From the IMG/VR virus record IMGVR_UViG_2740892218_000005: a DNA stretch of 9,537 nt, one strand, 5' to 3'. The notes under the pieces are model-generated. The model saw only the letters and a program-made list of their open reading frames with translations. It was not told where the DNA came from and searched no databases. The DNA comes from a virus. Its lineage: Duplodnaviria; Heunggongvirae; Uroviricota; Caudoviricetes. The first letter of the stretch is position 1. The number at the start of each line of letters is the position of its first letter. This document shows, piece after piece, positions 8,827 through 9,329 of this stretch. The translations under genes and the position numbers were made by a program.

Positions 8827-8920
8827 AAGTGACCTCCAATTATCTACAGATTACCATTCTAAATTTACCTGCCCTTAATAAGGGAACAATACTCCCCCCT
8901 CCACAGAAAGACAATAAAAC

Positions 8921-8993
8921 AACAAACAAAAATATAAATAACAAACAAAAATATAAATAACAAACAAAAATATAAATAACAAACAGAAATAAT
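8921..8993. repeat. Direct tandem repeat array, 19-bp unit AACAAACAAAAATATAAAT, three perfect copies plus a degenerate fourth
   Basis: Perfect copies at 8921..8939, 8940..8958 and 8959..8977; a degenerate partial copy at 8978..~8993 (aacaaacagaaataat); a partial unit-like sequence (acaataaaac) precedes at 8911..8920. No spacers, so not CRISPR. Lies 95-170 nt upstream of the PerC-like start codon. Confidence 0.9.
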
Positions 8994-9329
8994 CACGCTA
9001 TTTATTGTTTTTTACTGAAAGAACTATTACTGAACAAAAAACGCTGACTATATACTCAAGACCAAATAACTATTCTGCCAATCAAGTATCATAGCAACAT
9101 AAGGAATTACCGTGTTTTGCCTTCTCAGCCCATACAATATGAACATATACTTAATACTCTATTGTAATATTTTCATTCATGCGACCCACGTCATTTACCT
9201 GTAAATAATATTCAAAATATTTATCACAGAAATCGTTTTTGGCCATGATCTGAGCACACTATAAAGTCCGGAACTGGCTTTTTGTTAAATCCCCCCTAAC
9301 ACAACCATCAACACCTTTATAACAAAACA

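Follow-up and report, generated by a model that had tools for sequence, protein, structure and literature searches.

The stretch of viral DNA analysed here (IMG/VR record IMGVR_UViG_2740892218_000005; 9537 nt, referred to in its entirety as the window) constitutes a lambdoid prophage's late region, in minus-strand reading. Read on this strand, the window carries Rz, a 503 bp gap, a 104 amino acid PerC-family gene (pch), a hairpin, a convergent open reading frame (ORF) of the DUF3950 (ylcI/ynfO-like) type, cos, Nu1 and the large terminase gene. We focused on the gap, positions 8827-9329, which lies between the Rz stop codon and the pch ATG and is described throughout in the minus-strand sense. 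We consider it likely that this spacer forms the upstream, controlling part of a pch moron, an extra promoter–gene–terminator unit inserted between Rz and the cos-proximal ylcI/ynfO gene. The observations that bear on this reading are the structure of the module, its linkage to pch, the promoter geometry around a mapped homologous start site, a terminator, repeat-number polymorphism and a set of invariant sequence blocks.

The features of the locus are listed below in window coordinates, following the direction of pch transcription; EDL933 is the Escherichia coli O157:H7 strain used for comparison.

9330-9537, minus strand: 3′ part of Rz (i-spanin), running past the end of the window; Pfam Phage_lysis, E=7e-20; TGA stop codon at 9330-9332.
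8827-9329, minus strand: AT-rich spacer (31.2% GC), the likely upstream control region of pch on the basis of gene linkage.
8992-9329, minus strand: distal block of the spacer, −113 to −450, ~340 bp, 85-89% identical to O157-type alleles.
9290-9297, minus strand: second AGGGGGGA run, 33 nt past the Rz stop codon, allele-specific.
9151-9246, minus strand: 31-codon ORF, a truncated form of a 46-codon ORF; phrog_2157, E=7.6e-21.
9199-9241, unstranded: 43 nt run, invariant in nine of nine aligned alleles, a candidate operator containing the imperfect inverted repeat I7.
9041-9059, unstranded: 19 nt invariant run, a second candidate operator, with the near-palindrome TGAGTATATAGTCA at 9045-9058.
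8913-8991, unstranded: 19 bp tandem array with sense unit TTTGTTATTTATATTTTTG; Tandem Repeats Finder (TRF) period 19, 4.2 copies, 95% matches.
8909-8914, minus strand: −35 element TTGTCT of the putative promoter P_pch (TTGTTT in EDL933), followed by a 17 nt spacer; placed by alignment to the EDL933 start.
8893-8900, minus strand: AGGGGGGA run inside the −35/−10 spacer, at −14 to −21, specific to the allele family of the window.
8886-8891, minus strand: −10 element TATTGT of P_pch, identical in all phage-borne alleles examined.
8879, minus strand: predicted start site A(+1), homologous to EDL933 position 1271063.
8827-8878, minus strand: remainder of the 53 nt 5′ leader, with the Shine–Dalgarno (SD) sequence GGAGG at 8837-8833.
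8512-8826, minus strand: pch, PerC family, 104 amino acids; Pfam PerC, E=1.3e-42.
8447-8477, both strands: bidirectional intrinsic-terminator hairpin closing the pch moron, with a U-run after each side.

A first-pass annotation of the window, made by a model from the sequence alone, had drawn attention to this interval as an ORF-poor, AT-rich spacer. Both descriptions were borne out. The longest ORF on either strand is 43 amino acids and none reaches 60 amino acids, and the GC content is 31.2% over the whole spacer (0.29-0.36 in 300 bp windows), compared with 0.52-0.65 in the head genes. The wider region 8250-9300 (0.29-0.48) is likewise set apart from the head genes. The sense strand of the spacer contains 9% C and 22% G. 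Agreement extended to the lack of a terminator immediately after Rz, as our terminator scan returned no site there, and to the two tcccccct motifs, the coordinates of which (8893-8900 and 9290-9297) are exact. A hydrophobic 21-codon frame does exist, with its ATG at 9139 inside a plus-strand ORF at 9112-9204, slightly away from the position near 9146 originally given.

The spacer travels with pch. We searched 5,426 complete E. coli genomes with the spacer and with the pch coding sequence (CDS), and found matches at 1873 and 1877 places respectively, each in 688 records from 673 genomes. The median was three copies per genome, and the carriers were mostly O157, O111 and O145 strains. The pch CDS showed 95-99% DNA identity to copies in 687 records, with the same range for those of O157, O111 and O145 genomes. 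Other alleles of the spacer were 83-86% identical across 77-83% of its length by megablast, and a full-length alignment was obtained. The allele found in the window is rare, with identity of at least 95% in one of the 688 records. At six annotated chromosomal loci (O157 TR01, STEC299, O111, two O145 and A1), the same order recurs: Rz, the counterpart of which is annotated 'lysis protein' at homologous loci, an unannotated spacer of 463-465 bp, the PerC gene, YlcI/YnfO, and the small terminase subunit or DNA-packaging protein. Exceptions to this order are EDL933, where an insertion sequence element follows a partial YlcI/YnfO gene, and NZ_CP027545.1 (plasmid-labelled, 101 kb), where the spacer is 462 bp and an NleH pseudogene lies downstream instead of ylcI and cos. 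The pch gene of NZ_CP027545.1 is frameshifted, so the module also occurs in a decayed or rearranged context. Given its homologues across E. coli genomes, the interval is far beyond a chance feature. As expected of a group 1 pch region, it adjoins a 104 amino acid PerC gene near-identical to O157 Pch, and homology runs across the Rz–pch interval.

The edges of the module were placed by comparison with phages that lack pch. Similarity to pch-less phages (phi467, the cdtI phage and others) starts at 9337-9342, still within Rz and 7-12 nt from its 3′ end; these coordinates correspond to query positions 138-143 when 9200-9537 is used as the query. On the cos side, similarity to lambda and its relatives ends at 8353, and nothing between 8353 and 9337-9342 matched pch-less phages. 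These two breaks in backbone similarity indicate that the ~1 kb block between them is an inserted module, or moron. The block has the hallmarks of one: it is extra DNA between conserved genes, with its own terminator and a distinct base composition. The terminator hairpin at 8447-8477, which a simple terminator scan missed, also serves the convergent ylcI/ynfO-like gene. Its folding energies on the two strands are −16.4 kcal/mol (z=−4.6) and −15.2 kcal/mol (z=−4.3). As regards a promoter of its own, the start was measured at the homologous EDL933 locus and the corresponding elements are conserved in the window, with a weak position weight matrix (PWM) score.

The neighbouring ylcI/ynfO-like gene (8206-8430, plus strand) carries an in-frame TGA (8341-8343) in place of the Arg codon of O157. 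The DUF3950 ORF is thereby shortened to 45 amino acids, compared with 74 in O157, and the remaining frame is intact. The mutation looks recent or tolerated, and the same 45 amino acid form is annotated in strain 377323_2f.

Transcription start sites were taken from published Cappable-seq data for E. coli O157:H7 EDL933 (NZ_CP008957) grown in eight conditions (PMC10469882 Tables S5 and S7). The EDL933 genome contains a PerC-family gene, EDL933_RS06260 (1270696-1271010, minus strand), preceded by a matching Rz and a 465 bp spacer. Position 1271063, 53 nt upstream of the ATG, is listed as a gene transcription start site (gTSS) for EDL933_RS06260 in all eight conditions (PMC10469882 Table S5). The mean relative read score (RRS) at this position in exponential phase was 549, 1219, 602 and 164 in LB, minimal, acid and salt media, and 2240, 1055, 1704 and 640 in stationary phase for the same order of media (PMC10469882 Table S7). 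These values are comparable with those of the thr leader start (RRS 586-2730), and minor starts were recorded at 1271048 (−38 from the ATG) and 1271038 (−28) (PMC10469882).

The EDL933 start is preceded by TTGTTT, a 17 nt spacer, TATTGT and 6 nt before A(+1). Alignment to this start places the equivalent elements in the window, with the sequence TCCCTT between the −10 element and +1 (TATTTC in O157-type alleles). We infer that P_pch, a sigma-70-type promoter with a poor match to consensus at the gene-proximal end of the spacer, fires at A8879 in the window allele. Independent support for the start comes from the chromosomal pch of E. albertii, whose homology to the window is limited to the 56 nt upstream of the ATG: the homology stops at the start site, with a −10-like CATTAT in register. 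The pch homologue of an Escherichia sp. (locus L010) has just 28 nt upstream of the ATG in common with the window. The promoter would not have been placeable by sequence alone, since no sense-strand site rose above the shuffled controls; a consensus promoter scan gave no site above chance on the sense strand of the spacer, and the best sigma-70 PWM score on this strand was 7.1, below the mean shuffle maximum of 8.4. The first-pass annotation had proposed 'a long regulatory leader or promoter region'. The interval is indeed best described as the promoter and regulatory region of the PerC/Pch gene, but the long leader was not upheld: with the EDL933 start 53 nt from the ATG, some 450 of the 503 bp are upstream DNA rather than leader.

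Further observations concern pch homologues and other starts in EDL933. The E. albertii NBRC 107761 pch homologue (locus L009, 1944-2334) shows 89% amino acid identity, adjoins the 3′ end of fliE in a non-phage context, and has upstream DNA that is unrelated to that of the prophage copies, yet AT-rich. Antisense starts were recorded in EDL933 at 1270844, inside the pch CDS (four of eight conditions), and at 1271016, just upstream of the ATG and directed toward the spacer (one condition) (PMC10469882); by alignment, they map to ~8660 and ~8832 on the plus strand of the window. Another EDL933 PerC-family gene (1125966-1126285, 89 amino acids, beside ibrB-like genes) is transcribed constitutively from a start that precedes its ATG by 50 nt, giving a leader close in length to that of group 1 pch and unrelated to it in sequence.

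The leader is the sole part of the spacer common to non-phage pch homologues. In the consensus fold, AGGU of the SD sequence pairs with ACCU of codons 5-6, with no covariation. A published autoinhibitory structure of pchA likewise pairs the SD sequence with an anti-SD sequence in the coding region, and is opened by the small RNA (sRNA) DicF (PMC7769764). Translation of the window pch would probably be gated as for pchA, by an SD/anti-SD hairpin opened by DicF.

The tandem repeat array noted in the first-pass annotation was recovered by TRF (8913-8991, period 19), and abuts the promoter. Its variable core, 8920-8985, spans −41 to −106 relative to the predicted start. To the window allele we could add 14 others of the same type, from the complete genome 377323_2f, seven draft assemblies (found via the 31 amino acid ORF), five IMG/VR contigs and one metagenome contig. 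Of these 15 alleles, five had a core of 28 nt, seven one of 47 nt and three one of 66 nt, corresponding to one, two and three units and to spacer lengths of 465, 484 and 503 bp. The flanking 437 nt were identical in 12 of the 15, the variation of which is confined to the array. The array is, therefore, a true variable-number tandem repeat (VNTR), polymorphic in copy number among otherwise identical alleles and adjacent to a promoter, as contingency promoters are. As unit haplotypes, both A,A,A and A,G,G occur in the three-unit state, indicating that expansion happened at least twice. O157-type alleles have about two degenerate units at this site, with T-runs differing by 1-3 nt in length and spacers of 462-465 bp. 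No mention of a tandem repeat at pch or PerC genes was found in the pch- or PerC-related papers of the literature searched.

The promoter-proximal unit is always present, and puts the T-tract TATATTTTTGT at −57 to −47. Each unit of 19 bp, or 1.8 (1.81) helical turns, pushes the upstream DNA away from the promoter. An inverted, A-rich partial copy of the repeat unit, found in the set of inverted repeats I1-I9, lies at 8999-9014, just upstream of the array (8913-8991). Base-pairing of this copy with the array could occur in the late transcript or when the DNA is single-stranded, and the copy might promote slippage.

The two AGGGGGGA runs, which read as tcccccct on the plus strand, are the only copies in the 9.5 kb window. 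The expected number is 0.17, and three of 200 shuffles reached two copies. Both sites are occupied by T-rich sequence in O157-type alleles, and no role was found for either run.

Upstream of the array, the distal block contains stretches of unusual conservation. The longest invariant run across nine alleles was 43 nt, compared with a mean of 20 nt in column shuffles (P=0.002), and contains an inverted repeat with 14 nt arms at 9199-9212 and 9216-9229 separated by a 3 nt gap. A further invariant run of 27 nt lies at 9250-9276. The invariant inverted repeats are the best candidate regulator sites in the spacer, and the distal block is probably a protein-binding regulatory platform. The block also contains a direct repeat (9045-9062 and 9140-9157; 18 nt, 78% identity, 95 nt apart) with AGTATAT(A/G) in common between the copies, the first of which overlaps the invariant palindrome TGAGTATATAGTCA.

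The distal block holds the only recognizable ORF family of the spacer. The 46 amino acid form of O157-type alleles matches phrog_2157, a family of unknown function, with E=1e-37; in the window, the ORF is ended by a TAA at codon 32, with a 1 nt deletion further on. Among 5.8 billion proteins, relatives formed just 11 clusters at 83% identity or above, drawn entirely from E. coli and E. albertii; their lengths are 25-59 amino acids, and both the N- and the C-termini are ragged. Wherever the context was examined, these relatives sit in this same Rz–pch spacer. The small ORF had no match in Pfam and no SD-like purine run upstream of its ATG. Variable columns were distributed 7/7/6 over the three codon positions, with no third-position excess; codons 3-16 are unchanged and codons 17-31 change mostly non-synonymously. 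This pattern of substitution suggests constraint at the level of DNA rather than protein. The EDL933 copy, once annotated as RS29835, has a sole start at 1271438 in one of eight conditions (RRS 2.9), and its internal signals were classed as degradation (PMC10469882). Neither the peptide nor the pch gene names were found in those supplementary files of the Sakai ribosome-profiling small-gene study that were available to us. Lacking an SD sequence, a coding signature and distant homologues, and being truncated, the small ORF probably does not encode a functional protein. Nothing else in the interval looks like a pseudogene.

Taken together, these data suggest a model for the control of pch. The sigma-70-type promoter (TTGTCT, 17 nt, TATTGT, 6 nt and A(+1) at 8879) would produce a transcript with a 53 nt leader and a strong SD sequence. 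The T-rich 19 bp array abuts this promoter, and its proximal unit would supply a T-tract at the position of an UP element, aiding the poor hexamers. The number of units, from one to three, would set the distance and helical phase between the core promoter and the distal block, and so tune their coupling. The distal ~340 bp may act as a binding platform for nucleoid proteins and for host regulators of the LrhA type. On prophage induction, Q-modified late transcription from pR′ would cross the untranslated, C-poor spacer into pch. With 9% C and 22% G on its sense strand, the spacer would be a poor substrate for Rho loading, and late readthrough from pR′ would agree with a report that group 1 pch genes are SOS-induced (PMC6265319). 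It is known that pchABC are located on lambdoid prophages, and that LrhA directly activates pchA and pchB (PMC4456613; PMC13012123); regulators of pch described in the literature are LrhA, Lrp/butyrate, sigma-S/NtrC, Fur, DicF and Esr41.

We also considered a more far-reaching role for the VNTR, namely that of a heritable and reversible expression dial for a master activator of the LEE (locus of enterocyte effacement) type III secretion system. Adding or losing a unit would shift the distal operators by 19 bp and ~70 degrees of phase, altering the activation or silencing of pch. We regard this role as doubtful. If it were true, lineages or subpopulations of atypical enteropathogenic E. coli (EPEC) or E. 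albertii could have different virulence set-points.

Several points weigh against the proposed control region. The start was measured in EDL933 rather than in the window allele, and the segment from −1 to −40 is just 60-62% identical to O157-type alleles, making it the most diverged of the whole module; it includes the G6 run within the −35/−10 spacer. The PWM score of P_pch is 5.0, below the shuffle maxima, so that the promoter is not callable from sequence. EDL933 contains several near-identical pch copies, which may make read assignment ambiguous. Covariation gives no support to the leader hairpin, the folding energy of which is ordinary (z=−0.25). The effect of repeat number on expression is purely one that we infer. 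Most of the distal block may be unconstrained: its divergence of 11-15% represents conservation no better than that of synonymous sites in pch (five to seven synonymous codon changes over 104 codons against O157-type alleles, with 96% identity overall). With regard to xenogeneic silencing, of which the first-pass annotation considered the interval a likely target, the spacer is AT-rich relative to the genome (31% GC), as H-NS targets are, but contained no match to the high-affinity H-NS motif TCGATAAATT at up to two mismatches. No H-NS chromatin immunoprecipitation data for pch loci were found in the literature text searched, and the EDL933 start signal, strong under each of the eight conditions of culture, speaks against tight silencing there.

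The most serious alternative confines function to the ~110 bp nearest the gene, namely promoter, T-tract and leader. The distal ~340 bp would then be a neutral hitch-hiker, and the VNTR a neutral slippage hotspot. The level of distal divergence, at least as high as synonymous divergence in pch, would be expected under this explanation; the distal block also contains no consensus promoter, terminator, Rfam family or H-NS motif, and non-phage pch homologues have entirely different upstream DNA. However, the 43 nt invariant run, with its inverted repeat, exceeds 99.8% of column shuffles, the best match in each of the 688 records covers the distal block (the shortest being 77% of the query, positions 116-503), and the literature describes LrhA acting directly on the regulatory DNA of pchA and pchB. 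On balance, we consider a neutral distal block rather unlikely. It is considerably less likely that a displaced gene has left the interval behind as its degraded remnant, the 31-codon ORF being a pseudogene fragment. Lambda and DLP12 have bor-side genes between Rz and ylcI, and the truncated match to phrog_2157 with its premature TAA and deletion could be read in this way. Yet the first-pass suggestion of a replaced bor-type gene found no relative at the DNA or protein level: a search of 50,697 phage records (sensitive blastn, and tblastn with the ORF of the spacer) returned just one O157-derived fragment, and its blastn part gave no sign of a bor or ybcV remnant. The ORF spans only 96 of the 503 bp, shows no coding pattern in its substitutions, has no distant homologue or Pfam match, and belongs to a family whose members are all at least 83% identical and, in the contexts examined, all within this same spacer, which has no similarity to pch-less phages.

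Still less probable is a long leader with an upstream ORF, in which transcription would start at TTAACA-19-TATAGT (9288-9258) and a leader of ~420 nt, with the small ORF and U-rich repeats, would control pch. This element is the top sense-strand sigma-70 match and is invariant in nine alleles, and the ATG of the small ORF lies 5 nt past the predicted distal start; it was the promoter that we initially favoured. For pchA, LrhA dependence was reportedly traced by Honda et al. 2009 to upstream DNA at −418 to −392 relative to the start codon, a stretch that would map onto this element; the point was given no weight as evidence. We dropped the distal promoter because EDL933 Cappable-seq shows no start there: the nearest signal is 1271438, at an RRS of 2.9, compared with 164-2240 at −53. 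In addition, its score of 7.1 lies under the mean shuffle maximum, and the upstream ORF is truncated, lacks an SD sequence, varies evenly over codon positions and was not found in the Sakai small-gene supplements available to us. Least credible of all is an sRNA encoded on either strand of the spacer, which the first-pass annotation had kept in view. Many sRNAs are encoded by prophages of enterohaemorrhagic E. coli (EHEC) and EPEC, and a weak plus-strand promoter-like site lies at 9122-9151. Against this, an Rfam scan of 7800-9537 with E up to 10 gave no match within the spacer, a terminator scan gave no terminator-like site there, and promoter-like sites were no more frequent than in shuffles; thus, neither a start and terminator of its own nor a conserved structure or known family marks an sRNA gene. 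Among the EDL933 starts listed, no reproducible one falls in the distal block and no antisense one at 1271100-1271499 (PMC10469882). The known prophage sRNAs Pas (near Q and holin) and EcOnc (downstream of pR′ morons) are located elsewhere, and pch identifiers (ECs numbers and pchA) are absent from the supplement of the Hfq cross-linking and analysis of cDNA (CRAC) study.

We therefore retain the view of the spacer as the upstream control region of the pch moron. Its kind is ordinary: prophage virulence-regulator genes of this known class have such control regions. EHEC genomes already contain the element in good numbers, and a public data set lists its start site without discussing it. The analysis assigns the pch promoter a precise predicted position in this prophage. 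What is new is modest, and consists of a rare allele family with a promoter-abutting 19 bp VNTR and G-runs, and of short invariant inverted repeats. Pch switches on ler, and through it LEE type III secretion, so the control of pch helps to decide the timing of adherence in attaching-and-effacing E. coli. Across hundreds of pathogen genomes, pch is constantly accompanied by the ~450 bp of DNA upstream of it, and the two invariant inverted repeats of this DNA are concrete targets for finding pch regulators. The VNTR occupies the very position at which RNA polymerase is contacted by upstream elements. Should pch output vary with repeat number, the VNTR would offer a simple genetic marker for the virulence set-point; otherwise, the spacer is an ordinary moron control region.

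Of the known systems, the closest are the upstream regions of the group 1 pch genes (pchA, pchB and pchC) of EHEC O157:H7. The window region resembles these in its position between Rz and pch, in whole-length homology (83-86%), in −35/−10 geometry, +1 base and 53 nt leader, and in a CDS that is 96% identical, but differs in its expanded, copy-variable 19 bp array, two G6 runs and truncated small ORF. In common with promoters bearing UP elements of the rrnB P1 type, the homologous EDL933 promoter combines poor hexamers with a strong start signal. The T-tract TATATTTTTGT (−47 to −57) matches nine of 11 positions of the consensus of the distal UP subsite; the proximal subsite of the window does not match. 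A parallel can also be drawn with Neisseria nadA, a contingency locus with TAAA repeats upstream of its promoter. As in loci of this type, the repeat lies directly upstream of the −35 element of a virulence-related gene and varies in copy number; the 19 bp unit and just one to three extra copies make it a minisatellite, rather than a short simple-sequence repeat. Finally, the module resembles morons in the sense of Juhala and Hendrix, such as lambda bor and lom: it is an extra gene between late genes, absent from relatives and lower in GC than its neighbours, with its own terminator and a putative promoter, and would be within reach of late readthrough as well. It is unlike them in that its ~450 bp upstream non-coding part is longer than the pch gene and is conserved as a unit with the gene.

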